This document shows, piece by piece, positions 1-61,395 of a stretch of DNA of 64,000 bases. A model generated the notes under the pieces. That model searched no databases. It saw only the letters and a program-made list of their open reading frames with translations, and was not told the DNA's origin. Every line of letters begins with the position of its first letter. The first letter of the stretch is position 1. The position numbers and the translations under genes are program-made. The stretch is taken from NCBI RefSeq assembly GCF_058153355.1, contig NZ_CM177019.1; one strand, written 5' to 3'.

Positions 1-246
1 TAACGCAATAAAACATATTTACTGCAATTCTTTGGCCGGTTCTTTTACGTACAACGGAAACCTGCCACTTAAACGGTGAGTACTGGCGATAAAAATCCAA
101 TAAAACGTTCAAGGCAAAAGTAAGAAACAGACAAAGCAAAGGCCGCTCACGATATAGCCAGATAAATGACGGGGATCAATTGGCTTACCCGCGATAAAAT
201 GTTACCATTCTGTTACTTTTATGTATAAGAACAGGTAAGCCCTACC

Positions 247-1647
247 ATGCCACATTCCTACGATTACGATGCCATAGTAATAGGTTCCGGCCCCGGCGGC
301 GAAGGCGCTGCAATGGGCCTGGTTAAGCAAGGTGCGCGCGTCGCAGTTATCGAGCGTTATCAAAATGTTGGCGGCGGTTGCACCCACTGGGGCACCATCC
401 CGTCGAAAGCTCTCCGTCACGCCGTCAGCCGCATTATAGAATTTAATCAAAACCCACTTTACAGTGACCATTCCCGACTGCTCCGCTCTTCTTTTGCCGA
501 TATCCTTAACCATGCCGATAACGTGATTAATCAACAAACGCGTATGCGTCAGGGATTTTACGAACGTAATCACTGTGAAATATTGCAGGGGAACGCTCGC
601 TTTGTTGACGAGCATACGTTGGCGCTGGATTGCCCGGACGGCAGCGTCGAAACACTAACCGCTGAAAAATTTGTTATTGCCTGTGGTTCTCGCCCTTATC
701 ATCCAACAGATGTTGATTTCACCCATCCACGCATTTACGACAGCGACTCAATTCTTAGCATGCACCACGAACCGCGCCATGTACTTATCTATGGTGCTGG
801 AGTGATCGGCTGTGAATATGCGTCGATCTTCCGCGGTATGGATGTAAAAGTAGATCTGATCAATACCCGCGATCGCCTGCTGGCATTTCTCGATCAAGAG
901 ATGTCAGATTCTCTCTCCTATCACTTCTGGAACAGTGGTGTAGTGATTCGTCACAACGAAGAGTACGAGAAGATCGAAGGCTGTGACGACGGTGTGATCA
1001 TGCATCTGAAGTCAGGTAAAAAACTGAAAGCTGACTGTCTGCTCTATGCCAACGGTCGCACCGGTAATACCGATTCGCTAGCGTTACAGAACATTGGGCT
1101 GGAAACTGACAGCCGCGGACAACTTAAAGTCAACAGCATGTACCAGACCGCACAGCCGCACGTTTACGCGGTGGGCGACGTGATTGGTTATCCGAGCCTG
1201 GCGTCGGCGGCCTATGACCAGGGGCGCATTGCCGCGCAGGCGCTGGTGAAAGGCGAAGCCACCGCACATCTGATTGAAGATATCCCTACCGGTATTTACA
1301 CCATCCCGGAAATCAGCTCTGTGGGCAAAACCGAACAGCAGCTGACCGCGATGAAAGTGCCATATGAAGTGGGCCGCGCCCAGTTCAAACATCTGGCACG
1401 CGCACAAATCGTCGGCATGAACGTGGGCACGCTGAAAATTTTGTTCCATCGGGAAACAAAAGAGATTCTGGGCATTCACTGCTTTGGCGAGCGCGCTGCC
1501 GAAATTATTCATATCGGTCAGGCGATTATGGAACAGAAAGGTGGCGGCAACACTATTGAGTACTTCGTCAACACCACCTTTAACTACCCGACGATGGCGG
1601 AAGCCTATCGGGTAGCCGCGTTAAACGGTTTAAACCGCCTGTTTTAA
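247..1647 (+). CDS. sthA: soluble pyridine nucleotide transhydrogenase
   Basis: 466-aa ORF, N-terminus [18 protein letters not shown] with GxGxxG dinucleotide-binding motif; full-length match to E. coli SthA from memory; 3' end overlaps oxyR convergently. Confidence 0.95.
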
Positions 1648-2547
1648 CACTTTATCGAAATGGCCATCCATTCTTGCGCGGATGGCCTCTGCCAGCTGCT
1701 CATAGCGGCTGCGCAGCGGTGAGCCCGGACGATAAACCAGGCCAATAGTGCGGCGTGGTTCCGGCTTAATACACGGCAAATAAACAACCCCATCGCGTTT
1801 GCGCTCCGGCGGCACAGCCAGTGCAGGCAGTAAAGTGATCCCGCTACCTGCCGCCACCATGTTGCGCAGAGTTTCCAGGCTGGTCGCGCGGAAGTGTGTA
1901 TCTTCATCCGCCCCGGCTTCAAAGCAGAAACCCATTGCCTGATCGCGCAAACAGTGACCATCTTCCAGCATCAGCAGTTTTTCCCCTGCCAGATCGGCCA
2001 TCGGTACGCATTCGCGGTTCGCCCACGGGTGATCTTCATAGATAGCCAGCAGCATTGGTTCATCAAACAATGGCACTTCAATGAATGCTTCGCTCTCTTT
2101 CACCAGCGCGAGGATCACGCAATCGAGTTTGCCGCTGTCCAGTTGCGCCAGTAACTGGTGGGTCTGTGCTTCATGCAGATACATTTCCAGCTTTGGAAAG
2201 GTCTGGTGCAGCATCGGGATAATATGCGGTAACAGGTAAGGCCCAACCGTTGGAATCAAACCAATATGCAGCGGTCCGGACATCGTCTCGCCCTGCTGGC
2301 TTGCCATCTCTTTAAGGACTTTCACCTCACGCAGCACGGTACGCGCCTGATCCACCAGCAGCATTCCCGCCTGGGTGAACAACACTTTACGGCTGGTCCG
2401 CTCCAGCAACATCACGCCCAGCTCATCTTCCAGCTTACGAATTTGCCCGCTAAGCGTCGGCTGGCTAACGTGGCAGGAGTCTGCCGCACGCCGAAAATGG
2501 CGGTGTTCAGCCAATGCCACCAGGTACTCAAGATCACGAATATTCAT
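1630..2547 (-). CDS. oxyR: LysR-family hydrogen peroxide-responsive regulator OxyR
   Basis: ORF 1630..2592 contains [44 protein letters not shown]; start trimmed to the MNIRDLEY methionine to give the 305-aa OxyR length. Confidence 0.95.
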
Positions 2548-2642
2548 TATCCATCCTCCATCGCCACGATAGTTCATGGCGATAGGTAGCATAGCAACGA
2601 ACGATTATCCCTATCAAGCATTCTGACTGATAATTGCTCACA

Positions 2643-2755
2643 GAAACGGAGCGGCACCTCTTTTAACCCTTGAAGTCACTGCCCGTTTCGAGAGTTTCTC
2701 AACTCGAATAACTAAAGCCAACGTGAACTTTTGCGGATCCCCAGGATCCGCTTTT
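2643..2755 (+). ncRNA. oxyS: OxyS small regulatory RNA, divergent from oxyR
   Basis: Sequence gaaacggagcggcacctcttttaacccttgaagtcactgcccgtttcgagagtttctcaactcgaataactaaagccaacgtgaacttttgcggatccccaggatccgc matches the OxyS sequence from memory; ends in a hairpin plus T-run. Confidence 0.85.
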
Positions 2756-2759
2756 TTTT
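2733..2759 (+). terminator. intrinsic terminator of oxyS
   Basis: Inverted repeat gcggatcc-cca-ggatccgc followed by ttttttttt. Confidence 0.8.
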
Positions 2760-2798
2760 ATTCTACAGGCCCACAGCAAGAGAGCCTGATAGTAACAG

Positions 2799-4082
2799 TT
2801 ACTCAATCCGATCTTTGACAATAAAGAAGTAACACAGCGCCCCGGTGAACGTCACACAGGCCGCGATAACCAGCGCCAGATTAAACGAGTGCGTGGTATC
2901 CACTACCCAACCGGTTACGATCGGAGCAAAGGAAGCAAAAACAAAACTGCCAAAGTTTTGAATCCCGGCGATGGAAGCCACTTTTGTTTCTGACACCATC
3001 ACCTGCACCAGTCCCCATGCAGATGTTCCCGCGAAATGCACGCAGAACAGCGCCATTGAGATAAACGCTACAGCCTGGGCTGGCGAGGAGGATTGCACGA
3101 CCAGCAACGTGCCTAATGCCGACATCATCAAACCGCAGACAATAGCCGTTTTACGCGTCTTCGCCAGGTCGTAGCCTTTTTTCGCCAGCCGATCGACAAC
3201 AATACCGTTAACCCACATCCCGACCGCCGCCGCGAGGAAAGGAATCGCCGCCACCCAACCGGTTTTCGCCAGACTGAAGCCTTGCTCGGCTTGTAAATAA
3301 CCGGGTAACCACGCGATGTAGAGCCAACCGGTATAATTGACGCCAGAGAAACCTAAAATCATCCCCCAGGTTGTCCGATGCTTAAACAGCGCCAGCCACT
3401 CGCTAAATTGTAATTGTGGACGCGGTTTAACCGGCGCGGAGAGATAGGTCCGTTCTTCGTCGGTCAGGACAAACTGCGCCCGGTTGCGATACCACGCGTA
3501 CCAACAGATCCCAACCAGAATCCCCGCCACGCCGATGATGACGAACATTGCCCGCCAGCCCCATGCCAGCTGCATCAATACAAGAGCAGGAGGCGCAATA
3601 GCCTGACCGATAACGGTAGATGAGTTAAAAATCCCCAGCGCCGTGCCGCGTTCTTTTTGCGCATACCAGTCGGTGATCGACTTTACTCCCGCAGGCATAA
3701 ATGGCGCTTCGCCAATACCCAGACCGATACGCATTAAAATAAAGTGGCTAAAAGAATTAACCATTCCTGTTAATGCCTGCATTAATGACCAGAATATTAA
3801 GCCTGCGCCTAAAACTATTCGTGGGCCAAAGCGGTCTAGCAAAATACCGGAAGGGAGTTGTGAAAAACCATAAGACAGAGAAAATGCAGAAAGCAAAACG
3901 CCAAATTCTGTCGCCGATAATCCTAACTCGCCACGAATCGCTTCGCCTGCCACGCTCAATGACGAACGGTCGAGGAAATTAACGATCCCCGCCATAAATA
4001 ATAAAACCAGCGTTACTGTCTGAATACGACGAATCCGTTGCGGTTTATTACCCGCAACACTGGTTGACACATCAACGTCCAT
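2799..4082 (-). CDS. MFS transporter, anion:cation symporter (ACS) family, probable sugar-acid (aldonate/hexuronate-type) permease
   Basis: 427-aa ORF with multiple hydrophobic helices and the NFLDR-type motif typical of ExuT/GudP/DgoT-like ACS transporters; co-oriented with the downstream ManD-like gene; substrate not inferable. Confidence 0.8.
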   Translation of the reverse strand: MDVDVSTSVAGNKPQRIRRIQTVTLVLLFMAGIVNFLDRSSLSVAGEAIRGELGLSATEFGVLLSAFSLSYGFSQLPSGILLDRFGPRIVLGAGLIFWSLMQALTGMVNSFSHFILMRIGLGIGEAPFMPAGVKSITDWYAQKERGTALGIFNSSTVIGQAIAPPALVLMQLAWGWRAMFVIIGVAGILVGICWYAWYRNRAQFVLTDEERTYLSAPVKPRPQLQFSEWLALFKHRTTWGMILGFSGVNYTGWLYIAWLPGYLQAEQGFSLAKTGWVAAIPFLAAAVGMWVNGIVVDRLAKKGYDLAKTRKTAIVCGLMMSALGTLLVVQSSSPAQAVAFISMALFCVHFAGTSAWGLVQVMVSETKVASIAGIQNFGSFVFASFAPIVTGWVVDTTHSFNLALVIAACVTFTGALCYFFIVKDRIE

Positions 4083-5848
4083 TTTTAGCTCCTTGAGCGG
4101 AATTAATCGATTTGCTGACTATTCAGAAAATAATTAAGCGAACCGTTATTACCAGTTCCACAATGTGCCATCTTCCAGTCGTGCGACGGGGAGATACGCC
4201 GGGTCATACGGATATTTCGCCGCCAGTTTCTCATCGAAAGAAATACCCAGCCCCGGTTCATCGCCTGGGTGCATATAACCTTCATCGAAGCGCCAGCTGT
4301 GCGGGAAGACTTCAAGCATTTGTTCGGAATAGCCCATGTACTCCTGAACGCCAAAGTTTGGCACCCAGAGGTCAAAATGCAGCGCCGCCGCATGACAAAC
4401 AGGCGATAAATCTGAAGGGCCATGCGAACCGGTACGTACCTGATAAAGCGATGCAAAATCGGCAATCCGTCGCATCCCGGTAATGCCGCCTGCATGGGTA
4501 ATCGTCGTGCGAATATAGTCAATCAGCTGCTCTTCGATTAACTGCTTGCAGTCCCAGATACTGTTAAACACTTCACCGACCGCAATCGGCGTCACAGTAT
4601 GCTGGCGAATCAGACGAAAACATTCCTGGTTCTCGGCAGGCGTCGGATCTTCCATCCAGAACAGGCGGTAATCCTCAATGCTCTTCCCAAAGCGCGCCGC
4701 TTCGATAGGAGTCAGGCGATGGTGCATGTCATGCAACAGATGTTCGTTAAAACCGAACTTATTACGCACCGCTTCAAATAACTTCGGTGTAAAATCGAGA
4801 TACTTTTCTGAAGACCACAACTGCTCTTCCGGCCACAGGCCTTTGGTTGCCGGTTCATACGCCAGTCCTTTGCCCTTCGCCAGGCCATAAGTTGTTTGCA
4901 TACCCGGTACACCACACTGCACACGAATCGCCTTAAAGCCCATCTGCTGGTGCTTTGCATAGTCTTCAAGGACTTCATCAATCGTGCGCCCGGTGGTATG
5001 GCAATAAACCATCACGCCTTCACGAGAAGCCCCACCAAGCAGTTGATACAATGGCATATTTGCCGCTTTGGCTTTGATATCCCACAACGCCATATCAATG
5101 GCAGAAATGGCCGACATCGTGACGGGGCCACGTCGCCAGTAAGCACCTTTATAAAAGAATTGCCAGATATCTTCGATACGGCTGGCATCGCGGCCAATTA
5201 ATTGTGGACAAAGATGATCTTTCAGATAAGAAGCGACCGACAATTCGCGACCATTTAATGTGGCATCTCCCAATCCACAAAGTCCGCTTGCAGTGGTTAT
5301 TTTAAGCGTAACGAAATTACGTCCTGGGCAAGTAACAAAAACATCTGCAGCAATAATTTTCATTATTGCAATCTCCTGTGTTGTAAATAGACGCTTCAAA
5401 CTTAATTTTACGCCTACTACCATACAAGAGAGAAAGAGCGATTATTCAACCGTGATCACATTAAAAATAAAAATTTCCGCCGAGGAGAAAAACCCCCCTC
5501 AAAAACCACCTGAATAATTAACCATCATCGTTAAAACAACACGTTAAATAATCACATAACAAACTCCATTAATCATTAAAAATGAGCGCAGCAATAGAAA
5601 TGAATTATATTCAATTAATTAAAATATGTATTGATTGATGTATTGAAAATATGATTTTCATGGGGAGAGTGAAGGTAAAGAAGACGCAAGAATAAAAAGG
5701 AATATGACAAATAATAGTTCTGGTTGGGCGTTAAATTTAAGGTCACCAGAATGCTGACAAATTTCTGCCTGAGGCAGTCCGCCTACGTAGTGTCGCTACT
5801 TTATAGGCGTGGTAAGCTCCCCATTTTCAGGGGAGCAATATAAACCAA
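4083..5848. other. boundary region of a two-gene insertion between oxyS and argH, including a 485-bp AT-rich upstream region (5364..5848)
   Basis: In the K-12 arrangement (from memory) oxyS lies directly between argH and oxyR; here two extra genes and a long AT-rich leader intervene. Confidence 0.6.
4149..5363 (-). CDS. enolase-superfamily D-mannonate dehydratase subgroup protein (RspA paralog)
   Basis: ORF 4149..5423; from [24 protein letters not shown] onward it is nearly collinear with E. coli RspA as I remember it; start trimmed to that methionine (about 404 aa). Confidence 0.85.
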
Positions 5849-7222
5849 TTACTCCAACCGCGCCTGCGCAAAAGCAATCGCCTGCGCCACCTGCTGCGGG
5901 GAGACGCCGCCTTTTGCTGCACGCTTGTCGAGGCACGATTGCAGCGACAGAATCGGATAGACATCTTCGCCAATCACCTGACTGAATTTCTGCAACTCAC
6001 TGAGCGGCAGTTCTTCCAGCGGTTTGCCCTGACGAATGGCTTCCACCACCGCTTCACCCACAATATGGTGCGCCTCGCGGAACGGCACACCTTTCGCCAC
6101 CAGGTAATCCGCCAGTTCAGTGGCGTTCGCATACCCCTGCTGCGCCGCTTCCTGGCAACGCGGACGTTTCACCTGAATCCCGTCCAGCACCAGCGCCGCC
6201 ATATGCAGGCAGTCCAGCCAGGTATCGAGCGCGTCGAACAGACCTTCTTTATCTTCCTGCATATCTTTGTTATAGGCCAGCGGCAGACCTTTCAGCGTCA
6301 TCATCATGCCAGTCAACGCGCCCTGAACACGACCGCATTTACCCCGAATCAGCTCCAGCGCATCCGGGTTTTTCTTCTGCGGCATTAATGATGAACCGGA
6401 AGTAACACGATCAGAAAGCTCCACAAAACCCGCTTCGCCGGTGTTAAAGAAAATCAGATCTTCGGCAAAACGCGACAAATGCACCATACCGATAGCGGCG
6501 GCAGAAAGCAGTTCCAGCACGTGGTCGCGGTCAGAAACGCTGTCGAGACTGTTACGGGTCGCCGAGGCAAAGCCCAGCCAGCCTGCTAACTGTTCACGGT
6601 CGATTTCATAGGCCGTTCCCGCCAGTGCGCCACAGCCTAACGGGCTGACATCCAGACGCTTAAGCGCATCCTGCAAACGGCTTTCATCACGCGCCAGCAT
6701 CTCAACATAGGCCAGGCACCAGTGCGCAAACGTCACCGGCTGGGCGCGTTGCAGGTGAGTATAACCAGGCATTACCGCGTCCTGATTATTCTGCGCGGTC
6801 TCGACCAGAGCGGATTGTAACTGTCGGTTAGCCGTCAGCAACTCGCTAACGGTATCCTTGCACCACAGTTTCAGGTCAGTCGCTACCTGATCATTACGGC
6901 TACGCCCGGTATGCAATTTTTTGCCTAACTGGCCCACTTTGTCGATCAGTTTGCCTTCCACCCAGCTATGGATATCTTCGGCGTCGCTTTCAAGAATTTG
7001 TTGTGGCCTGGCGCGAACATCTTCCAGCAGCACGTTCAGCGCCTCTTCCAGTTGCGCCTGCTCTTCTGCGGTTAACACGCCGACCGTGACCAGGGCTTTG
7101 GACCAGGCCACAGAGCCAACAATATCCTGCTCCGCCAGACGGTAATCAAAGCGCAGTGAGTCGTTGAATTGTTTGAACCGTTGATCTGCTGCCTGGGTAA
7201 AACGCCCGCCCCAAAGTGCCAT
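5849..7222 (-). CDS. argH: argininosuccinate lyase
   Basis: 457-aa [47 protein letters not shown]; fumarate-lyase family signature [12 protein letters not shown] present. Confidence 0.96.
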
Positions 7223-7282
7223 AAATCTGTTTCCTTATTTTGAAATTCAATGCCGGAAAGCTACGTCTCCGGCTAACAAAAC

Positions 7283-8059
7283 TTAAGCTAAAATCCGCGT
7301 ACCCATCGGCATACCGTTAAACAGTGCCGGAAGTTGTTCCGCATGACGCCAGGAGGCGATATCTACCGGGCGACCCAGCGTGCGCGCAGCGTCCAGCGCC
7401 GCGTTCACTTTCACTATCATGCCGTCAGTAATAATGCCCTGCTCAATCAGTTGTTCTGCTTTCGCTGCGGTCATTTCGGCAATACGTTGTCCTTTGCCGT
7501 CGAGAATACCGCTGACATCAGAGAGCAAAATCAGATCCGCGCCCAGCGTTGCCGCCAGCGCCGTCGCCGCCTGGTCAGCATTGACGTTCATCAGTTGCCC
7601 TTCGTCCGTTACGCCAATGGAGCTGACCACTGGTAGATAACCGTTTTCCAGCAACGTGTTGATAAGCTTAGGCGAACCTGGCTGCGCCAGTCCAACATGG
7701 CCTAACTCTTCATCGAGCTGGGTCACTTTTACGCTGTCGCCGTCACCGAGAAACAAACCTACGGCTGCAATCTGATGTTTCTTCGCCCATGCCAGCAGGG
7801 TTTTATTTGCCGTTCCCGCCAGCGCTCCGGTGATAATGTCTATCTGATCCGCAGGCGTCACCCGCAGGCCGTTTTTCTTTTTCACCGGCAGATTCAGTCC
7901 TTTCATCAGCTCATCCACCACGCAGCCGCCGCCGTGGACAATCACCAGCGGACGCTGATGTGACTCGCGATAATTCACCAGGGCGCTAAACAGACGTTCC
8001 AGCGCCTCTTCACTATCCAGCAGTACGCCGCCCAGTTTGATAATTAATGGATTCATCAT
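7283..8059 (-). CDS. argB: acetylglutamate kinase
   Basis: ORF 7283..8092 contains [45 protein letters not shown]; start trimmed to give 258 aa. Confidence 0.95.
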
Positions 8060-8066
8060 TGCACCC

Positions 8067-9071
8067 CTAAATAAGAGACTGCGTTTCCGCATAGCCGAAA
8101 CGAATATTGGCGCACTGTACCGCTTGTGCTGCCGCGCCTTTCAATAAGTTGTCTTCGGTCGCCACAATAATCAGATGTTCCCCCTGAACGGCAAAACCGA
8201 TATCGCAGAACGGCAGCCCGACGACATTTTTCAGCGCCGGAACGCCTTTGTCATACAACCGTACCAGCGGTTTATGGGCATACGCCTGCTGTAACGCTTG
8301 CGCGACTTGCGCCTGGTTCACGCCAGGCTTCAGGCGGCAGGTAATGGTTTCGAGAATGCCGCGCGGGAAATTGCCCAGATGCGGGGTAAAAATAACGTCA
8401 GCACCGAGATGCGTGGCGATCTCCGGCTGGTGGCGATGGGTAAAGACACCATACGGTTGCAGGCTAACTTCACAAAAACTATTTGAAATCGCTGCCTTAC
8501 GTCCTGCTCCGCTCACACCACTGGTGGCGTTGATAACCGGCCACTGATTGAGGTCAAGAAGATCGGCATCAATCAACGGTTTCAGCGCCAATTGCGCCGC
8601 CGTCGGATAACAGCCAGGCACCGCAATTAAGTTCGCTTCTTTTAATTTATGACCGCACCACTCCGCCAGACCGTAAGCTGCCTGTTCCAACAGTTCCGGG
8701 TATTGATGGCTAAAGCCGTAATATTTTTCATAGAAGGTGGCGTCGTTAACACGAAACGCGCCGGAAAGGTCGAACACCACACAGCCCGCTTCAAGAAATT
8801 GTGGCGCTAAATCGTGACTAACTTCATGGGCAGTAGCAAGAAACACCACGTCCACCCCTGGGCTAAACTCACTGATATCCGACATCGGCTGCAACGGCAG
8901 ATCAACGATGCCTTTTAGCTGCGGATGCAAATCGGAGATTAACTTTCCCGCATCATTGCTTTGCGCTGAAACAGTCAAAGCGGTTATGTTCATATGCGGA
9001 TGGCGATTTACATAGGTCACTAGCTCTGCGCCAGCGTAACCGCTGGCACCCACAATCAGCGTATTCAACAT
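8067..9071 (-). CDS. argC: N-acetyl-gamma-glutamyl-phosphate reductase
   Basis: 334-aa [46 protein letters not shown]; matches E. coli ArgC. Confidence 0.95.
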
Positions 9072-9149
9072 CGGGGCTATTCACCTTCTTATGTCTGGTT
9101 GCCTGGTTAAACGTAAAACATTCACCTTACGGCTGGTGGGTTTTATTAC

Positions 9150-9200
9150 GCTCAACGTTAGTGTATTTTTATTCATAAATACTGCATGAATATTGATACT
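9150..9200. promoter_or_regulatory. divergent argE / argCBH control region with ARG-box-like ArgR operator sequences
   Basis: gtgtatttttattcataaatactgcatgaatattgatact contains TGAAT/ATTCA half-sites resembling ARG boxes, between the divergent argC and argE starts. Confidence 0.5.
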
Positions 9201-9224
9201 ATCATGACCAGAGGTGTGTCAACA

Positions 9225-10376
9225 ATGAAAAACAAATTACCGCCATTTATCGAGATTTACCGTGCTCTGATTGCCACACCTTCAATAAGCGCCACGGAAG
9301 AGGCACTCGATCAAAGCAATGCAGATTTAATCACTCTACTGGCGGACTGGTTTAAAGATTTGGGCTTCAATGTGGAAGTGCAGCCCGTGCCGGGAACTCG
9401 CAACAAATTTAATATGCTAGCCAGTTGCGGACAGGGAGCTGGCGGTTTGCTGCTGGCGGGGCATACCGATACGGTGCCATTTGATGACGGCCGCTGGACG
9501 CGCGATCCGTTTACGCTGACAGAGCATGACGGCAAGCTTTACGGCTTAGGCACCGCCGACATGAAAGGCTTTTTTGCGTTTATCCTCGATGCACTACGCG
9601 ATGTCGACGTCACGAAACTGAAAAAACCGCTCTACATTCTGGCGACTGCCGATGAAGAGACCAGTATGGCAGGAGCGCGTTATTTTGCCGAAACTACCGC
9701 CCTGCGCCCGGATTGCGCCATCATTGGCGAACCGACGTCGCTGCAACCGGTACGCGCGCATAAAGGCCATATCTCGAACGCCATCCGTATTCAGGGCCAG
9801 TCGGGGCACTCCAGCGATCCAGCACGCGGAGTTAACGCGATCGAATTGATGCACGACGCCATCGGGCATATTTTGCAATTGCGCGATAATCTGAAAGAAC
9901 GTTATCACTACGAAGCATTTACCGTGCCATACCCTACGCTCAACCTCGGGCATATTCACGGTGGCGATGCATCTAACCGTATTTGCGCTTGCTGTGAGTT
10001 GCATATGGATATTCGTCCGCTGCCAGGCATGACACTCAATGAACTTAATGGTTTGCTCAACGATGCATTGTCTCCGGTGAGCGAGCGCTGGCCGGGTCGT
10101 CTGACGGTCGACGAGCTGCATCCACCGATCCCTGGCTATGAATGCCCACCGAATCATCAACTGGTTGAAGTGGTTGAGAAATTGCTCGGAGCAAAGACCG
10201 AAGTAGTGAACTACTGTACCGAAGCGCCGTTTATTCAGACGTTATGCCCGACGCTGGTGCTGGGACCTGGCTCAATTAATCAGGCTCATCAGCCTGATGA
10301 ATACCTGGAGACACGGTTTATCAAGCCCACCCGCGAACTGATCACCCAGGTGATTCACCATTTCTGCTGGCATTAA
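9225..10376 (+). CDS. argE: acetylornithine deacetylase
   Basis: ORF 9186..10376; [26 protein letters not shown] onward matches ArgE (383 aa); M20 peptidase family. Confidence 0.95.
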
Positions 10377-10377
10377 A

Positions 10378-10430
10378 ACGTAGGCCAAACAATGTCGGAT
10401 GCGATGCTTGCGCATCTTATCCGACCTACA
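10378..10430. repeat. REP (repetitive extragenic palindromic) element
   Basis: gtaggccaaacaatgtcggatgcgatgcttgcgcatcttatccgacctaca, an imperfect palindrome of the GCCGGATG/ATCCGGC REP type downstream of argE. Confidence 0.7.
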
Positions 10431-10677
10431 CCTTTGGTGTTACTCGAGGCGATTTTTTAACATTTCCATAAGTTACGCTTATTTAAAGCGTCGTGAATTT
10501 AATGGCGTAAATTCCTGCTATTTATTCGTTTGCTGAAGCGATTTCGCAGCATTTGACGTCATCGCTTTTACGTGGCTTTATAAAAGACGACGAAAAGCAA
10601 AGCCCGAGCATATTCGCGCCAATGCGACGTGAAGGATACAGGGCTATCAAACGATAAGATGGGGTGTCTGGGGTAAT

Positions 10678-13329
10678 ATGAACGAACAATATTCCGCATT
10701 GCGTAGTAATGTCAGTATGCTCGGCAAAGTGCTGGGGGAAACCATCAAGGATGCGTTGGGAGAACACATTCTTGAACGCGTTGAAACTATCCGTAAGTTG
10801 TCCAAATCTTCACGCGCTGGCAATGATGCTAACCGCCAGGAGTTGCTCACCACTTTACAAAATTTGTCGAACGACGAGCTGCTGCCCGTTGCGCGTGCGT
10901 TTAGTCAGTTCCTGAATCTGGCTAACACCGCCGAGCAATACCATAGCATTTCGCCGAAAGGCGAAGCAGCCAGCAATCCGGAAGTGATCGCCCGCACCCT
11001 GCGTAAACTGAAAAACCAGCCGGAACTGAGCGAAGACACCATCAAAAAAGCAGTTGAATCGCTGTCGCTGGAACTGGTCCTCACGGCTCACCCAACCGAA
11101 ATTACCCGTCGTACGCTGATCCACAAAATGGTGGAAGTGAACGCCTGCTTAAAACAGCTCGACAACAAAGATATCGCCGACTACGAACATAACCAGCTGA
11201 TGCGCCGCCTGCGCCAGTTGATCGCCCAGTCATGGCATACCGATGAAATCCGTAAGCTGCGCCCAAGCCCGGTAGATGAGGCCAAATGGGGCTTTGCCGT
11301 AGTAGAAAACAGCCTGTGGCAAGGCGTACCGAATTACCTGCGCGAACTGAACGAACAACTGGAAGAGAACCTCGGCTACAAACTACCCGTCGAATTTGTT
11401 CCGGTGCGTTTTACCTCGTGGATGGGCGGCGACCGCGACGGAAACCCGAACGTCACTGCCGATATCACCCGCCACGTCCTGCTGCTCAGCCGCTGGAAAG
11501 CCACCGATCTGTTCCTGAAAGATATTCAAGTTCTGGTTTCTGAACTGTCGATGGTTGAAGCAACTCCGGAACTGCTGGCGCTGGTCGGCGAAGAAGGTGC
11601 CGCAGAACCGTATCGCTATCTGATGAAAAACCTGCGTTCCCGCTTGATGGCGACACAGGCATGGCTGGAAGCGCGCCTGAAAGGTGAAGAAGTACCAAAA
11701 CCAGAGGGTCTGCTGACGCAGAACGAAGAACTGTGGGAGCCGCTCTACGCTTGCTACCAGTCCCTTCAGGCGTGTGGCATGGGTATTATTGCCAACGGCG
11801 ATCTGCTCGACACCCTGCGCCGCGTGAAATGTTTCGGTGTACCGCTGGTCCGTATTGATATCCGTCAGGAGAGCACCCGTCATACCGAAGCGCTGGGCGA
11901 ACTGACCCGCTACCTCGGCATCGGCGACTACGAAAGCTGGTCAGAGGCCGACAAACAGGCGTTCCTGATCCGCGAACTGAACTCCAAACGCCCTCTTCTG
12001 CCGCGTAACTGGCAACCGAGCGCCGAAACGCGCGAAGTACTTGATACCTGTCAGGTAATTGCTGAAGCACCGCAAGGTTCCATTGCCGCCTACGTGATCT
12101 CGATGGCAAAAACGCCGTCCGACGTACTGGCTGTACACCTGCTGCTGAAAGAAGCGGGTATTGGATTTGCGATGCCGGTTGCACCGCTGTTTGAAACCCT
12201 TGATGACCTGAACAACGCCAACGATGTCATGACCCAGTTGCTCAATATCGACTGGTATCGCGGCCTGATTCAGGGCAAACAGATGGTGATGATTGGCTAT
12301 TCCGACTCAGCAAAAGATGCGGGGGTGATGGCGGCTTCCTGGGCGCAATATCAGGCACAGGATGCATTAATCAAAACCTGCGAAAAAGCGGGTATTGAAC
12401 TGACGCTGTTCCACGGCCGCGGCGGTTCCATTGGTCGCGGCGGCGCACCTGCCCATGCGGCGCTACTGTCACAACCGCCAGGAAGCCTGAAAGGCGGCCT
12501 TCGCGTGACCGAACAGGGCGAGATGATCCGCTTTAAATATGGTCTGCCAGAAATCACCGTTAGCAGCCTGTCGCTGTACACCGGGGCGATTCTGGAAGCC
12601 AACCTGCTGCCACCGCCGGAGCCGAAAGAGAGCTGGCGTCGCATTATGGATGAACTGTCAGTCATCTCCTGCGATCTCTACCGTGGCTACGTACGTGAAA
12701 ACAAAGATTTTGTGCCGTACTTCCGCTCCGCTACGCCGGAACAAGAGCTGGGCAAACTGCCGTTGGGTTCACGTCCGGCGAAACGTCGCCCGACCGGCGG
12801 CGTCGAGTCACTGCGCGCCATTCCGTGGATTTTTGCCTGGACACAAAACCGCCTGATGCTCCCCGCCTGGCTGGGTGCAGGTACGGCGCTGCAAAAAGTG
12901 GTCGAAGATGGCAAGCAGAGCGAACTGGAAGCCATGTGCCGCGACTGGCCATTCTTCTCGACGCGTCTCGGCATGCTGGAGATGGTCTTCGCCAAAGCAG
13001 ACCTGTGGCTGGCGGAATACTATGATCAACGTCTGGTAGACAAAGCATTGTGGCCGTTAGGTAAAGAGTTACGTAATCTGCAAGAAGAAGACATCAAAGT
13101 GGTGCTGGCGATTGCCAACGATTCTCACCTGATGGCCGATCTGCCGTGGATTGCGGAGTCTATTCAGCTGCGAAATATTTACACCGACCCACTGAACGTA
13201 TTGCAGGCCGAGTTGCTGCACCGCTCCCGCCAGGCAGAAAAAGAAGGCCAGGAACCGGATCCTCGCGTCGAGCAAGCGTTAATGGTTACTATTGCCGGGA
13301 TTGCGGCAGGTATGCGTAATACCGGCTAA
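10678..13329 (+). CDS. ppc: phosphoenolpyruvate carboxylase
   Basis: 883-aa [46 protein letters not shown]; C-terminal ...AGMRNTG. Confidence 0.97.
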
Positions 13330-30171: not shown

Positions 30172-31065
<894 letters not shown>

Positions 31066-31118
31066 TTACCTCATCAATCGCTTGTAGTTATATGTTGTGT
31101 TGTGCACATCTATCCGTT

Positions 31119-31146
31119 TAGACGTCCAGATGTAAAGATGAAGGAA
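31119..31146. promoter_or_regulatory. tandem MetJ boxes in the metF promoter
   Basis: tagacgtccagatgtaaagatgaa: consecutive 8-bp repeats resembling the AGACGTCT met-box consensus, about 60-85 bp upstream of the metF start. Confidence 0.7.
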
Positions 31147-31414
31147 AAGCTGAAGGGCGTCAACCGAAAAATGACCAATGATGGTGAGGAAAAATCAGGG
31201 AAGATGAAAAAAATTCAGGATAAAGGCCAAAGTTCCTCGTACCTGAACATGTGGAATATACCTCATTTAAGATGATATTTATTTGTTTAATTATTTTTTC
31301 TATTAACCGGTGCAACGAGTGTTAAAGCGTGTAATTTTAGGATTATATCAATAGTCACGGTTATACAAACAGTGATAATTTATGAAATAATTTTATTTAC
31401 CAGAGGAATAGCGC

Positions 31415-32389
31415 ATGTATCTTAATACTCAAGTTCAATATAATAAGTTAAATAAAGATGAAAAAAAGATCCTGTTGTTACAAAAGCTAGCCCATTTAAC
31501 TGATTTTACTTTTGACAGAATAGAGACATTTTCAGCATTTGGACAATCTACTGAAACAGGTGTTTTTAAATATAAAGATGGCAATGAATTTGTTGTTGTC
31601 CCCGGGGATACAGTAATATTAGGGTGGGATGCCAGTCTCAATAATATGGATGGTCCGACAAAACAAGAATTTGAAGAGATGTTGGAACCAGAAGGTTTAG
31701 ATTTGAATAATTATCTCACCGACTCTTGCACACCTGTCAGGAAGGTTACAATTTCCCCGATGCTGGTTGAAAGAAACGTTCACGCCGAACCAAGTTGGAA
31801 GGAAGTATCTCTTACGGACCCCCGCATCACAGAGAACAGCATGCTGCAAAAATTTCTGTCTGATTATATGGAAAAAATTAATCCTGGAGTTCACGAATTA
31901 AACGCAAGATTGAAATTACAATATATAGATGGGGATTTATTTGCACAAATATATGAATCAATTAGCTATGATGAGTTACTTCAAAATATCCAAAGCAATA
32001 GTTTTGATCTTCCGAGCGAAGATGAATGGGAATATTTATGTGGCGGTGGTTCCAGGACACTCTGGCGCTGGGGGAATAATTTCGACTATCAAATGAAAAT
32101 CCCATTTATTACTTCAGAAGAACCAACAACCTGGGATATAGAATGGCCTAATCAGTTTGGGTTGCAGATTGCATTTGATCCCTATCTTCAGGAAATTATT
32201 AATGATAAAGATATTCTTCTGAAAGGTGGCGATGGTGGGTGCAATCTCTGCGGAGGTGCTAATGTTGTATTAGGATTCTTGCCTGTGGCAACTTATTACA
32301 AAGGATATAATAAACATACGGACGAATTAGAATATATGGATGACATTGGAGACAATTATACTTCTTATCGCAGAATAATTCGTTTATGA
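31415..32389 (+). CDS. hypothetical protein, FGE-sulfatase (SUMF1/EgtB/PvdO-like) domain suspected
   Basis: 324-aa ORF, very AT-rich by eye; motifs FVVVPGDTVILGWDAS, SEDEWEYLCGGGSRTLWRWGNNF and NQFGLQI resemble the MVxIPGGxFxMG, AEWEYAxRGG...PWG and NxxGLxDM motifs of formylglycine-generating-enzyme-like domains; no signal peptide. Confidence 0.5.
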   Translation: MYLNTQVQYNKLNKDEKKILLLQKLAHLTDFTFDRIETFSAFGQSTETGVFKYKDGNEFVVVPGDTVILGWDASLNNMDGPTKQEFEEMLEPEGLDLNNYLTDSCTPVRKVTISPMLVERNVHAEPSWKEVSLTDPRITENSMLQKFLSDYMEKINPGVHELNARLKLQYIDGDLFAQIYESISYDELLQNIQSNSFDLPSEDEWEYLCGGGSRTLWRWGNNFDYQMKIPFITSEEPTTWDIEWPNQFGLQIAFDPYLQEIINDKDILLKGGDGGCNLCGGANVVLGFLPVATYYKGYNKHTDELEYMDDIGDNYTSYRRIIRL

Positions 32390-38199: not shown

Positions 38200-39327
38200 A
38201 TGTCAAATCTGTTTGCGATTAATGTCTGTAAAACGTTCGGTTGTCGAAATTTGGGATTGGCCTCATCGGAAGATTACAGTTGGCCAGACTATAAACTGGG
38301 TTTTCCGGCACTGCACTGCCAGGCATGCGGAAGTTACCCCCCTTTGTTTGATGAACAACAATTTCGTGACTGGTTGTCAGTTCACATGACTGCGTGTGCC
38401 ATAGAAACAGGGCATTTTTGTCCATCATGCTATTGTAAAGAAAAGATTTTTTATGGCCACAACCCGCAGGGAACACAACGCGTTCAATGCCGTTCATGCA
38501 AAAAAGTCTGGACTCCGAAACAGCAGCCAGCAAGAGAAATTACGTATCCCCAGTCCATTGAAACCGTTCAACTGTTCATGCCCTTTCAAGGAGCCAGCGC
38601 AGTACAAAAGCTCTATGTTTTAGTCAGTCTTGACGCCACTCGTGGCAACATCCTTCATCTCTCCACGAATTATACGCAACATCAGACAGGAGACAGTCTG
38701 CGGTACAGTTACAGAGGCAATACAGAACCAACTGAGCACCATAGCGATATTGTGCAGAGGGTAGATATGCGTGAAGCGCAATTCTTGCGCCGGAGCCAGT
38801 TCGATGAAATTCAGTATGGCAGTGCTGTGCTCAAGCGCAACGGCAAGGGAGCCATACTACGCCCGGTTATCACGGCACACGGGCATTTCAGAATACTGAA
38901 AATCCGCTTTCCACATGTCAAAACGCATATCATTTCACACGAATGTTTTCTGAGAGGCGCAATTATTACAGCCTGGGCAGATCAGTTCCGCCAACAACAA
39001 GGCGAACTTTGGTTCGTAGAAGAAGAAATCAGCGACCGTAACGCTGATATTCCCTGGCATTTTCAGGGAACGACATACCATGGTTGGTGGCAAAATCAGT
39101 GGCAACGCTGGGGGCAGGGGAATAACAGCAAGATGGTCTGCCTGCTCACAGGAGTCTCCTTAGAAAGGGGCGCAAATGTTTCTCTGGCAACCAGTCGTTG
39201 CTTTATCACATGGCTGACAGACCAACACGACTTTACCCAAAGCGCGTTATTATCCGCAGGTCGCGTAACGAAAATGCTGACCTCACTGGCGTTAAAATAC
39301 AATGAATCGCTCAATCCATCTTGTTAG
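38200..39327 (+). CDS. hypothetical Cys-rich protein with N-terminal zinc-ribbon(s), possibly transposase-derived DNA-binding protein
   Basis: 375-aa ORF; Cys pairs CKTFGC...CQAC and CPSCYCKEK-x14-RVQCRSCKKVWT resemble the IS1 InsA / IS1595-type zinc ribbon (CPSC...QRYLCSHCRKTWQ); remainder not recognisable; no signal peptide. Confidence 0.45.
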   Translation: MSNLFAINVCKTFGCRNLGLASSEDYSWPDYKLGFPALHCQACGSYPPLFDEQQFRDWLSVHMTACAIETGHFCPSCYCKEKIFYGHNPQGTQRVQCRSCKKVWTPKQQPAREITYPQSIETVQLFMPFQGASAVQKLYVLVSLDATRGNILHLSTNYTQHQTGDSLRYSYRGNTEPTEHHSDIVQRVDMREAQFLRRSQFDEIQYGSAVLKRNGKGAILRPVITAHGHFRILKIRFPHVKTHIISHECFLRGAIITAWADQFRQQQGELWFVEEEISDRNADIPWHFQGTTYHGWWQNQWQRWGQGNNSKMVCLLTGVSLERGANVSLATSRCFITWLTDQHDFTQSALLSAGRVTKMLTSLALKYNESLNPSC

Positions 39328-39556
39328 TCAATACACTCGACAAACGACCATAAATTAATGGGATCACTATTTCTCATTTAATTAAATATATGAATGTATG
39401 ACTGAAAAATATAATCACAGTCAATGTTTAATTAATAACATTATTTGTTACTAAGATCACATAATACTTTCCTGACCTATGCTTACATAAAAATAAGACA
39501 CGGAGTTCCTTTTATTTAAATAATTCAACCAATGTAACAACCCCTATCAAGGAGGG

Positions 39557-42847: not shown

Positions 42848-43708
42848 ATGTGTATAAAAAAGCACGGGATAGCTTTATCGATTCTATTAATACCTTGCAT
42901 TGGAAACGCTCAGGAAATTAAAAGTGAGGAAGGCTGGTTACATCAAAGCTTGAATGTCATTGGTCGCACAGACTCTCGCTTTGGCCCAAGGCTGACTAAC
43001 GACCTCTACCCTGAATATACTGTAGCAGGAAGAAAAGACTGGTTTGATTTTTATGGTTATGTTGATCTACCAAAATTCTTTGGCGTCGGCAGTCACTATG
43101 ATGTTGGGATCTGGGATGAGGGCTCACCACTATTTACGGAAATAGAACCTCGGTTTTCCATTGACAAATTGACCGGATTAAATCTTGCGTTCGGCCCTTT
43201 TAAAGAATGGTTCATTGCAAACAACTATGTCTATGATATGGGTGACAACCAGTCATCCCGGCAAAGTACATGGTATATGGGGCTTGGTACAGATATCGAC
43301 ACGGGTCTACCAATTAAGCTTTCTGCCAATATATACGCCAAGTATCAGTGGCAAAACTATGGTGCCGCTAATGAAAATGAATGGGACGGATATCGATTCA
43401 AAATAAAATATAGCATTCCTCTTACCCATTTATTCGGAGGGCGATTGGTATACAATAGTTTTACTAACTTTGATTTTGGATCCGATCTTGCGGACAAATC
43501 ACACAATAATAAACGAACCAGTAATGCTATTGCTTCAAGCCATATCCTTTCCCTGCTATATGAACACTGGAAATTTGCATTTACACTACGTTATTTTCAC
43601 AACGGTGGACAATGGAATGCTGGGGAGAAAGTTAACTTCGGAGATGGTCCATTTGAATTAAAAAACACAGGATGGGGAACCTATACTACTATTGGTTATC
43701 AATTTTAA
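42848..43708 (+). CDS. Tsx-family outer-membrane nucleoside-specific channel protein (paralog of tsx)
   Basis: 286-aa ORF, AT-rich; signal peptide then blocks matching E. coli Tsx from memory ([97 protein letters not shown]) and a C-terminal aromatic residue. Confidence 0.85.
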
Positions 43709-56725: not shown

Positions 56726-57211
56726 ATGAAATACGATACTTCCGAGCTTTGTGACATCTATCAAGAAGATGTTAACGTCGTGGAACCGCTGTTCTCCAAT
56801 TTTGGCGGACGGGCGTCGTTTGGCGGACAAATAATCACGGTAAAATGTTTCGAGGACAACGGGTTGCTGTACGATCTGCTCGAACAGAATGGCCGTGGTC
56901 GTGTTCTCGTCGTTGATGGCGGTGGTTCTGTTCGTCGCGCACTGGTCGATGCTGAGCTGGCGCGTCTGGCAGTACAAAATGAATGGGAAGGCCTGGTCAT
57001 TTACGGCGCGGTGCGTCAGGTAGATGACCTGGAAGAGCTGGATATCGGCATCCAGGCGATGGCAGCAATTCCAGTCGGTGCCGCTGGCGAAGGCATTGGC
57101 GAAAGCGATGTCCGCGTTAATTTTGGCGGCGTCACCTTCTTCTCCGGTGACCATCTTTATGCCGACAATACCGGAATTATTCTTTCAGAAGATCCGCTGG
57201 ATATTGAATAA
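56726..57211 (+). CDS. rraA: RNase E inhibitor RraA
   Basis: 161-aa [49 protein letters not shown]. Confidence 0.95.
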
Positions 57212-57228
57212 GTACCTGCCATGCGTTA

Positions 57229-57254
57229 AAAGGGGAATTAAATTCCCCTTTTTT
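57229..57254 (+). terminator. intrinsic terminator after rraA
   Basis: aaaaggggaattaaattcccctttttta. Confidence 0.75.
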
Positions 57255-57469
57255 ATATGCAAAATATTCATAAAGACTATCGTTTGTTTTTATTTAATTC
57301 ATTTTAAATATCAATAGTTCACATCTGACAATATAAATTAATTATCGATAAATCATTTCATAAAAATATGCAGCATTAAAAATTAATGCTATATGGTAAA
57401 TTAACTATTCTGGGAATAGGGATATGAATCATCGTTAGTAGCGAACGTATTATATAATAAGGGACTGAT

Positions 57470-61306: not shown

Positions 61307-61395
61307 GCCTGATGCGACGCTTACGCGTCTTATCAGGCCTACGAGCCGATGCCATTTTGTGTAGGCCGGATAAGGCGTTCACGCCGCATCCGGCA
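61307..61395. repeat. REP/BIME repeat pair
   Basis: gcctgatgcgacgcttacgcgtcttatcaggcctac and tgtaggccggataaggcgttcacgccgcatccggca in opposite orientations. Confidence 0.8.

Follow-up and report, generated by a model that had tools for sequence, protein, structure and literature searches.

The AT-rich interval between argH and manD of Escherichia coli is probably a composite intergenic spacer with an rspA-type promoter

The genes argH and manD of the E. coli chromosome studied here are separated by a conspicuously AT-rich interval, and the question that it raises is whether this sequence is a long leader of the manD transcript, the site of a hidden gene, or a promoter region of an ordinary kind. 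The analysis covered a stretch of 64,000 nucleotides from contig NZ_CM177019.1 (assembly GCF_058153355.1), which is referred to below as the window. The gap occupies exactly positions 5364–5848 (485 bp). The first-pass annotation had described it as AT-rich and rich in homopolymers, and this description is borne out: its GC content is 35.3% (64.7% AT), compared with 51.3% (48.7% AT) in the window overall, only 1.5% of all windows of this length in the 64 kb reach such an AT content, and it contains seven homopolymer runs of at least 5 nucleotides versus 2.9 ± 1.6 in shuffled sequences, 2.7% of which reach seven. In a near-identical genome annotated by PGAP, it is also the longest feature-free interval in 43.6 kb. 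The genes of the locus are the following.

2799–4082, minus strand: sugar-acid MFS transporter of the anion:cation symporter type, the module's second gene (PGAP)
4149–5363, minus strand: manD, D-mannonate dehydratase ManD of the enolase superfamily, first gene of the module (PGAP)
5849–7222, minus strand: argH, argininosuccinate lyase (ORF listing; PGAP annotation of homologous genomes)

The stop codon of argH, the upstream neighbour, ends at 5849 and borders the gap, and manD begins with the ATG at 5363–5361 on the minus strand, a start that is shared by the PGAP annotation of five homologous genomes. A 424-aa form of manD beginning at the ATG at 5423 was rejected, as this codon lies inside the conserved operator described below and upstream of the predicted transcription start site, and the N-terminal extension is out of frame in rspA. 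The manD product matches the NCBIfam equivalog NF043051 with 731 bits (cutoff 550), and the transporter matches the D-galactonate transporter subfamily TIGR00893 with 275 bits, below the cutoff of 395. Together the two genes form a 3.1-kb accessory module between argH and oxyS (OxyS at 2643–2752; Rfam, 137 bits), which about one third of complete E. coli genomes carry (1860 of 5426). The oxyS-argH locus is horizontally variable, and in genomes that lack the module the empty site measures 54 bp. Searches for a mobile-element origin gave no phage matches, and the matches labelled as plasmid were chromosome-sized records only; flanking direct repeats were not found.

The composition of the gap is uneven, with GC contents of 47% in 5719–5848, 26% in 5571–5718, 33% in 5461–5570 and 37% in 5364–5460. 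Its anatomy, homologies and pattern of constraint, which like its composition are direct observations, are best explained in our opinion by a composite region made up of the 3' flank of argH, a neutrally evolving filler, a constrained element (block A) and a promoter paralogous to that of rspA, and we regard this explanation as likely. The gap is thus probably an ordinary mosaic spacer of four parts and not a long mRNA leader. The value of recognizing a promoter region here, in place of a long leader or a hidden gene, lies mostly in cleaning up the annotation.

The part nearest to argH (5719–5848) consists of a stem-loop and a decayed REP/BIME element, and it ends within a junction repeat.

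5816–5836, minus strand: stem-loop GCTCCCC-TGAAAAT-GGGGAGC, 12 nt past the argH stop codon (sequence)
5765–5815, minus strand: decayed BIME, a REP pair (allele alignment)
5718–5751, no strand assigned: inverted repeat TTCTGGT...ACCAGAA around the palindrome TTAAATTTAA (sequence and allele comparison)

The stem-loop is kept in all Escherichia alleles, it has no U-tract and it was not called in the terminator scan; from the lack of the U-tract, it may represent a weak terminator or a 3'-end stabiliser. Most E. coli alleles read GTAGGCGGATAAGGCGTTTACGCCaCATCAGGCAG at the BIME position and in the alignment E. whittamii has two full REPs, whereas in the allele of the window about 15 bp are missing from the second REP and little is left of the other one. 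The REP core matches the canonical REP present at 61368–61390 of the window, with one mismatch to the 23-nt core among the allelic variants. An intact BIME allele scores 27.9 bits (E=0.009) against the naRNA4/REP model, which is below the gathering score of 59.5, and the truncated remnant in the window has no Rfam match and no longer scores with this model. The placement directly after a stop codon and stem-loop, and the intact alleles with one or two REPs having the canonical GGATAAGGCGTTTACGCC core, are as in other BIME/REP elements found 3' of E. coli operons, from which the degraded element in the window differs by its decay. The RNA fold of 5690–5860 (-52.9 kcal/mol, z = -4.07) is more stable than that of any of 200 shuffled sequences, and this structure is explained by the stem-loop and the REP. 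The flank differs from E. whittamii at 22/129 positions, in addition to indels. The inverted repeat marks the junction where homology between two island alleles stops, and in one strain an IS1 is inserted at 5715. A Cra-like sequence, GCAGAAATTTGTCAGC (12/16), was seen at 5753–5768; it lacks the central CG and was one of 15 motifs tried.

Downstream of this flank lies the most AT-rich part of the gap.

5571–5718, minus strand: AT-rich filler of 25.7% GC (74% AT) (composition and divergence)

The filler differs from E. whittamii at 28/155 positions, which in comparison with 20–24% at the 4-fold sites represents a neutral rate, it contains small indels, and its sequence is not conserved between alleles. 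The first-pass annotation had named a lack of conservation of the region as an observation that would count against its proposal; this holds for most of the gap, which drifts at the neutral rate, but not for two strongly constrained segments, which are the promoter and block A considered below. The transcribed strand of the filler is pyrimidine-rich, and its C/G ratio of 4.0 over 5600–5745 (146 nt) is more extreme than in all other windows of this length in the 64 kb, where the 99th percentile is 2.0. In 78-nt windows from 5745 to 5600 the ratio is 3.5–8, and the C-rich, G-poor tract thus reaches the length of at least about 80 nt expected of a rut site. A transcript of this composition should make a good loading site for Rho, which would probably stop read-through from argH before manD. 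The filler is a candidate rut-like zone, a candidate platform for H-NS, or both. Similar to Rho-dependent intergenic terminators, in which the RNA is C-rich, G-poor and unstructured, the tract comes directly after a weak hairpin with which a highly expressed operon ends; in contrast to them, the resemblance is one of composition alone. The bias is smaller in the diverged alleles (2.2 in E. whittamii and 1.4 in the big-island allele), and a selected rut function is uncertain for this reason. A derivation of the filler from a decayed oxyR-oxyS intergenic region, which was considered owing to a pseudo-oxyS in the big-island allele, was rejected (local alignment score 13 versus a null mean of 12.5).

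The sequence of 5364–5482 is paralogous to the promoter of rspA in K-12. About 115 bp nearest to manD align with that promoter, and when the proximal 260 bp are aligned locally with the region upstream of rspA, the alignment joins CGGCGgAAAT...TGTGATCAC...CTTGTATGGTAGTAG. The elements recognized by this comparison are as follows.

5364–5393, minus strand: predicted 5'UTR of about 30 nt, with the Shine-Dalgarno sequence AGGAG at 5373–5377 (sequence)
5399–5404, minus strand: candidate -10 element TAAGTT, 17 bp after TTGTAT (register comparison with rspA and a 96-site consensus)
5417–5428, minus strand: conserved 12-mer CTTGTATGGTAG, which includes the right RspR half-box and overlaps the -35 element TTGTAT (5422–5427)
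5445–5460, minus strand: CRP-type site TGTGATCACGGTTGAA with the half-site TGTGATC (alignment with TGTGATCAC of the rspA promoter)

In K-12, the start site of rspA has been mapped by primer extension to 30 nt upstream of the ATG, and RspR footprints the rspA box ATACnnGTAT and represses the promoter (PMC8249747); the CRP and RspR sites of rspAp are described as known (10.1101/2025.05.13.653802). We infer the start site of manD and the action of both regulators by transfer from this paralog. In view of the position of the rspA start and the alignment of the two promoters, the manD transcript is predicted to start at about 5392–5396 and to have a 5'UTR of about 30 nt. The term leader, applied earlier to the whole gap, is thus not supported for the other 455 bp or so, which are located either ahead of the promoter or in the argH 3' flank.

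The promoter of rspAB, which is repressed by RspR (YdfH) and activated by CRP, shares with the manD promoter the TGTGATCAC sequence, followed after 25 nt by TTGTAT within CTTGTATGGTAGTAG, a TAnnTT -10 element 17–18 bp later (a candidate at manD), a leader of about 30 nt (predicted for manD) and the CGGCG-AAAT remnants further upstream. In both cases, the downstream gene encodes a dehydratase of the ManD subgroup, and manD and rspA show about 81% nucleotide identity (blastn). However, the rspA promoter has the full RspR palindrome, where the manD copy has TCTC for ATAC; its -35/-10 spacer is 18 bp, versus 17 bp of a different sequence at manD; its partner gene is rspB and not an MFS transporter; and it lacks block A, which at manD belongs to 370 further bp upstream.

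The 12-mer CTTGTATGGTAG is present without change in 77 of 79 manD/rspA-type loci of Enterobacterales at a distance of up to 140 bp from the start codon, and from Enterobacter to Budvicia it is found 54–88 nt before that codon. Its first base in the window lies 65 nt before the manD ATG, within the range of about 55–90 nt that characterizes the family, and it is invariant in all island alleles. A TGTGA(T/C) sequence occurs across the Enterobacterales at a fixed offset of about 31 nt from the 12-mer. In the window TGTGATC begins 32 nt upstream of it (5460 versus 5428), a spacing that is the same as in K-12 rspA and one base off the 96-site consensus. The left half of the CRP-type site is good and its right half is poor, and as its match to the consensus (7/10 core positions) is no better than those in shuffled sequences, it is the conserved position that argues for it. 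Relative to the predicted start site, it is centred at about -60 to -61, corresponding to class I geometry. This site also holds the only GATC of the gap; a 6mA-seq preprint reports a glucose-dependent GATC at 'manD' in ATCC 25922, but as it gives no coordinate, the report cannot be used here.

The complete RspR palindrome ATACnnGTAT is not found in the window, which reads TCTCttGTAT and retains the right half only. A left half (ATAC/ATA) is present in 71 of 78 manD-proximal sites, and the boxes that precede MFS/ydfI-type genes of other genera are likewise without it. RspR may not bind here because the left half is absent. The rspR (YdfH) gene belongs to the core genome (5417 of 5426 E. coli genomes) and its product may still repress the promoter, although with only a half-palindrome this control may be weakened or replaced. 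The candidate -10 element is one base off the register of TAGATT in rspA and was not among the top PWM candidates, and neither a promoter/terminator scan nor our own sigma-70 PWM gave a site better than those in shuffles, with no strong sigma-70 match anywhere in the gap. The lack of a strong constitutive sigma-70 promoter fits with dependence on an activator. Motifs were also scanned with consensus sequences (CRP, KdgR, ExuR/UxuR, GntR, ArcA, FNR, IHF, Fis, DgoR, ArgR, Lrp, and NagC) and none of these had a match in the gap beyond chance. The predicted 5'UTR shows 0/30 differences from both E. whittamii and the big-island allele, the 5'UTR and core promoter together differ from E. whittamii at 1/102 positions (P = 1e-9), and 14 further metagenome haplotypes show the same pattern of constraint.

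Expression of manD and the transporter gene would accordingly involve a CRP site at about -61, the 12-mer over the -35 element, a weak -10 element, a 5'UTR of about 30 nt and a strong Shine-Dalgarno sequence, and the two genes most likely form a sugar-acid operon that is under catabolite control, depends on an activator and has a short leader. These results would place an accessory module carried by about one third of E. coli within the CRP/RspR-type regulatory family of sugar-acid genes, and the occurrence of CTTGTATGGTAG upstream of several genes across the Enterobacterales suggests that the RspR-type regulon is larger than the single K-12 target. The earlier suggestion of multiple regulator sites in the gap has found support by homology, in the putative CRP half-site and RspR-type box, and also in the following element.

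5530–5563, minus strand: block A, TTTGTTATGTGATTATTTAACGTGTTGTTTTAAC, 34 bp with a direct repeat of TTTAACG (two copies, 13 bp apart; conservation)

Relative to the predicted start site, block A spans about -136 to -170, and the CRP site follows 70 bp downstream. Each of the 23 haplotypes shows little or no variation in it: no change was seen in the nine from genomes, and the 14 from metagenomes showed three singleton changes, none of them within the TTTAACG repeats. It has 0/34 differences from E. whittamii (P = 3e-4), and in the comparison with the big-island allele (P = 1.5e-7) its flanks differ by 30–40%. Its spacing from the CRP site is constant, as no indel separates them in any of the 23 haplotypes. 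Block A is present in a single copy in E. coli, where no homolog was found elsewhere except one 18-nt match with a chance-level E-value, and it is absent from the 79 other Enterobacterales loci. From its sequence conservation, block A is a strongly constrained element under clear purifying selection. The rspA-paralog promoter model does not account for it. Its candidate roles are nucleation of H-NS or binding of some other regulator.

Silencing by H-NS is compatible with the composite explanation, to which it would add a further layer, and the two are not exclusive. According to this proposal, H-NS nucleates at high-affinity sites in the gap (such as the two CGTTAAA of block A and GCGTTAAATT at 5728), spreads over DNA of 26–35% GC and keeps manD and the transporter gene off unless it is counteracted. 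Binding of H-NS to the gap is plausible from the sequence, and we give the full proposal somewhat less than an even chance. The AT content (64.7%, and 74% in 5571–5718) is well above the average over several hundred bp, the gap being within the lowest 1.5% of 485-bp windows for GC. With the template tCG[ta]TA[at]ATt from Lang et al. (PMC2094087), four matches of at least 8/10 are found in the gap, or 8.2/kb versus 2.1/kb in the whole window. Two of these are within block A, the most constrained block, and the best (9/10) is the GCGTTAAATT sequence in the inverted repeat at 5718–5751. At a threshold of 7/10 there are 18 matches versus 10.5 in shuffles (P = 0.016). However, the four stronger matches are not above composition-matched shuffles (2.2, P = 0.16), Lang et al. 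found that about 39% of random 500-bp regions contain the motif (PMC2094087), which also counts against the proposal, and the AT-rich filler is without sequence conservation. The horizontally variable locus favours it. The region resembles cryptic or accessory sugar operons silenced by H-NS (bgl, and the proU type of nucleation and spreading; Lang et al., 2007) in its AT-rich upstream sequence, its horizontally variable catabolic operon, its template matches with a central TpA step and its weak promoter, predicted here to depend on CRP; it differs in that the motif count at manD is not significant once composition is considered. No H-NS ChIP for a module-bearing strain was found in the literature, and a CRP/H-NS study of ETEC H10407, a strain for which presence of the module is not established, reports nothing at the manD locus.

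A more specific proposal, which is tentative and which we consider rather unlikely to be correct, is that block A is a lineage-specific cis-regulatory element by which the duplicated rspA promoter has been rewired. The copy would have lost the left half of the RspR operator and gained a pair of TTTAACG sequences, kept at a constant distance some 100 bp further upstream and putatively bound by H-NS (nucleation, with the accessory sugar-acid operon subject to xenogeneic silencing) or by another E. coli regulator.

It is improbable that the gap beyond a minimal promoter is only functionless debris, that is, a scar left at the oxyS-argH hotspot by recombination or deletion. The neutral evolution with indels of both the filler and the argH flank, the progressive deletion of the REP, the break in homology of the island alleles at 5718 and the insertion of IS1 at 5715 are all in accordance with such an origin. 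However, it does not explain a block A that stays invariant 70 bp upstream of the CRP site while its flanks differ by 21–40%, a spacing between the two that never varies, or a C>G bias that is the most extreme in 64 kb.

A genuine long leader is very unlikely. It would require a distal promoter in the filler, where a perfect TATAAT is present at 5604–5609, giving a 5'UTR of about 240 nt in which block A acts as RNA, through a GGAG-N6-ATG-TGA start-stop or through GUGAUUAUUUAAC/GUUGAAUAAUCGC pairing. Block A indeed has a Shine-Dalgarno-like GGAG 6 nt before ATG-TGA, and the fold of 5364–5620 is modestly stable (z = -2.43) with block A paired to the CRP-site region. However, the TATAAT is without an acceptable -35 element and reads TATGAT in the diverged alleles, the promoter scan gave no sites and the best PWM score is below the shuffle mean, the ATG of block A is ACG in one haplotype, several inverted repeats like the 11/13 one between block A and the CRP-site flank are expected by chance in 485 AT-rich bp (our own estimate), no Rfam family matches, and the proximal promoter architecture is kept across the whole bacterial order.

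The idea that the gap hides an independent small RNA or small protein gene, also raised in the first-pass annotation, we consider the least credible of all: a 39-codon ORF on the plus strand (5724–5843, TTG start) is indeed not interrupted in any Escherichia allele, although indels of 12 bp and 33 bp occur, and the argH flank is strongly structured, but the middle of this ORF is the REP element, replaced wholesale between alleles, its TTG start has no Shine-Dalgarno sequence, a 43-aa ORF is frameshifted or stopped in three of nine alleles, no gap peptide has a Pfam match, Rfam at E <= 1 over 1–12000 gives OxyS alone and nothing in 5364–5848, and in place of a promoter/terminator pair the scans found no promoter-like sites in the gap and only two terminator-like sites, both inside manD. 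An 85-aa ORF was likewise rejected; it is antisense to the promoter and is conserved only because the promoter is.

Between the promoter and block A, one further small structure was observed.

5482–5500, minus strand: small hairpin GAGGGG-loop-CTCCTC (alleles and RNA fold)

It lies in a neutrally evolving T-rich stretch, and in the diverged alleles a G.U pair of its stem has become A-U, which leaves the stem intact.

On sequence evidence, the 485-bp gap between argH and manD is an ordinary composite intergenic spacer with a functional core paralogous to a known promoter. The composition noted in the first-pass annotation was confirmed: the gap is exactly 485 bp long, AT-rich (35.3% GC versus 51.3% for the window, among the 1.5% of 485-bp windows with the lowest GC) and homopolymer-rich (7 runs of at least 5 versus 2.9 expected), and it is the longest unannotated one in 43.6 kb of an annotated near-identical genome. 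Its AT-richness is concentrated at 5461-5718, and the argH-proximal 130 bp have 47% GC. Stretches that are equally or more AT-rich (485-bp GC of 0.31-0.36) also occur at 30971-31951, 39121-39421, 43271-43371, and 57011-57301. The identity of the downstream gene as ManD is confirmed by its NCBIfam equivalog match. The gene order and the main features of the window, which is E. coli chromosomal DNA, are as follows.

247-1647, plus strand: sthA
between sthA and OxyS, minus strand: oxyR
2643-2752: OxyS sRNA (Rfam, 137 bits)
2799-4082, minus strand: MFS transporter, sugar-acid ACS type
4149-5363, minus strand: manD (NCBIfam equivalog, 731 bits versus a cutoff of 550)
5364-5848: argH-manD gap
5373-5377, minus strand: Shine-Dalgarno AGGAG
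near 5392-5396: predicted start site (rspA register)
5399-5404, minus strand: candidate -10 TAAGTT (17-bp spacer; shifted by one base from the rspA register)
5422-5427, minus strand: candidate -35 TTGTAT (rspA register)
centre about -60 to -61: putative CRP site (rspA register)
5530-5563, at about -136 to -170 relative to the predicted start: block A, a conserved segment, TTTGTTATGTGATTATTTAACGTGTTGTTTTAAC
5816-5836: stem-loop GCTCCCC/GGGGAGC after the argH stop, lacking a U-tract
5849-7222, minus strand: argH, then argB, argC, argE, and ppc

The proximal segment of the gap aligns with the upstream region of E. coli rspA (CGGCG-AAAT, TGTGATCAC, and CTTGTATGGTAGTAG joined). Of 79 manD/rspA-type loci of other Enterobacterales, 77 carry an exact copy of the 12-mer CTTGTATGGTAG, 54-88 nt before the start codon, with TGTGA(T/C) about 31 nt upstream of it. 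In K-12, rspA is repressed by RspR (YdfH), which has a 31-bp footprint centred on ATACnnGTAT, and its start site lies 30 nt upstream of the ATG (Shimada et al., PMC8249747). The promoter elements of manD were placed by transfer of this register, and the manD leader is therefore predicted to be about 30 nt; reading the 485 bp as an unusually long leader was not supported. The suggestion of multiple regulator sites is supported by homology, several sites being predicted in this regulatory region. A manD with 20 extra codons, starting at ATG 5423 in a mechanical ORF list (5423-5361, minus strand), was rejected: this ATG falls within the conserved operator and precedes the predicted start site, and 5363 is the start used by PGAP and by all orthologs.

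Although the island copy shares the aligned 12-mer and the TGTGA element with the K-12 rspA promoter, the left half of its RspR palindrome differs, reading TCTC rather than ATAC in every island allele, and no island allele has the complete palindrome. At manD-proximal sites elsewhere the left half is ATA in 71 of 78 cases. Since RspR-type boxes before MFS and ydfI-type genes of other genera also lack the left half, the invariant box core alone may suffice. Control of this manD copy by RspR is uncertain; rspR itself is a core gene, present in 5417 of 5426 genomes. Across the whole gap, no strong sigma-70 promoter was detected by a simple scan or by our own PWM, a result that is consistent with activator dependence of the promoter and speaks against separate transcription units.

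The sole GATC of the gap (5454-5457) lies inside the CRP half-site TGTGATCAC, and in rspA-type promoters of other genera it is usually followed by another GATC some 20 nt downstream; regulator-protected Dam sites would give a cheap in vivo readout of occupancy. In other Enterobacterales, CTTGTATGGTAG with TGTGATC upstream is also found before MFS-transporter and ydfI-like (mannitol dehydrogenase family) genes (loci L006, e.g. 4484 and 11090, L014, L020, L024, L053, L060, L067, and L076). In these bacteria, an RspR-type regulon may therefore comprise several operons, versus the single target reported for K-12.

Conservation of the gap was assessed in an alignment of nine alleles (the window, six E. 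coli genomes, E. whittamii, and the long-island allele), with 4-fold degenerate sites in manD, MFS, and argH as the calibration (20-24% different versus E. whittamii and 7-14% versus the long-island allele). The 5'UTR and core promoter (1/102 differences versus E. whittamii, P = 1e-9) and block A (0/34, P = 3e-4) are constrained, whereas the remainder, namely the T-rich segment between block A and the core promoter (12/57), the AT filler (28/155), and the argH flank (22/129 plus indels), evolves about neutrally. In the long-island allele block A is identical although its flanks differ by 30-40% (P = 1.5e-7). Fourteen further haplotypes, retrieved from metagenomes with the CRP-site 23-mer as anchor to avoid selecting for block A itself, showed the same profile: three singleton changes were seen in block A, all of them outside its two TTTAACG repeats, and no indels occurred between it and the CRP site.

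Block A is thus a constrained element. It occurs in a single copy in E. coli, was not found before manD, rspA, or MFS genes of other genera, and fits none of the transcription-factor consensus sequences compared with it. Action of H-NS on the gap, as first proposed, is possible: on the opposite strand the two repeats (TCGTTAAAAC and ACGTTAAATA) each match the H-NS template of Lang et al. (PMC2094087) at 8/10 positions. However, AT-rich DNA often contains this motif, and the number of matches in the gap (4 versus 2.2, P = 0.16) is not significant. Block A also contains an ATG-TGA start-stop behind GGAG, in which ACG replaces ATG in one haplotype. An exact 18-nt match to its core TTTAACGTGTTGTTTTAA in strain LHM10-1 (L094 2501-2524), in unrelated AT-rich intergenic DNA upstream of a methylaspartate mutase (glmS/glmL) cluster, is probably due to chance (BLAST E = 1). 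Experiments might be worthwhile only for block A and the missing RspR half-site.

The suspected hidden sRNA or small ORF found no support: Rfam had no match in the gap, Pfam had none for its ORFs, and a 43-aa ORF is broken in three alleles. A 39-aa ORF stays open, but it is encoded by the REP, starts with TTG, and has no Shine-Dalgarno. No phage or true plasmid relatives were found.

Directly after the argH stem-loop are BIME remains, at a position reading GTAGGCGGATAAGGCGTTTACGCCaCATCAGGCAG in most E. coli alleles and holding two full REPs in E. whittamii; about 15 bp are lost in the window. The assignment as a REP/BIME remnant is supported by a core matching the canonical REP at 61368-61390 (plus strand), by a sub-threshold naRNA4 match in the intact allele, and by a flank that folds far better than shuffles (z = -4.07). 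Another REP sequence (10391-10425, plus strand; partial naRNA4 match, 32 bits) lies between argE and ppc. On the transcript strand, the C/G ratio from 5745 to 5600 is 4.0 over 146 nt, the most extreme strand bias in 64 kb (99th percentile 2.0), and it is weaker in diverged alleles. From this composition we infer a Rho-loading zone, which would insulate manD from arginine-regulated read-through. At 5753-5768 (minus strand), GCAGAAATTTGTCAGC is a Cra-like imperfect palindrome lacking the central CG, which matches a Cra consensus at 12/16 positions (reached by 0/200 shuffles; one of 15 motifs tried).

The oxyS-argH gap (2753-5848; L001, L003/L004) is a three-state hotspot. In the empty state (L001, K-12-like genomes) only 54 bp, including the canonical argH terminator, separate oxyS from argH. 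The 3.1-kb manD+MFS module is carried by 1860 of 5426 complete E. coli genomes, and E. whittamii (L005) has it too. The long allele (about 12.7 kb, about 136 genomes) has a 9.6-kb sugar-utilisation cluster (FGGY kinase, two epimerases, ABC transporter, DeoR regulator, and araD) inserted at the equivalent of 5718. The long allele also carries a second, full-length but decayed oxyS copy (L003 4356-4478, plus strand), which abuts the stop codon of the FGGY kinase gene. Its Rfam OxyS score is 35.5 bits (gathering score 75), it shares about 80% identity with the 3' 97 nt of the genuine oxyS, and it seems to be left over from an older junction between oxyS and cargo. In strain LP5-1 (L002 3248-4000), an IS1 is located at the island-allele junction, equivalent to 5715, and the strain has lost manD together with the 5' part of its MFS gene.
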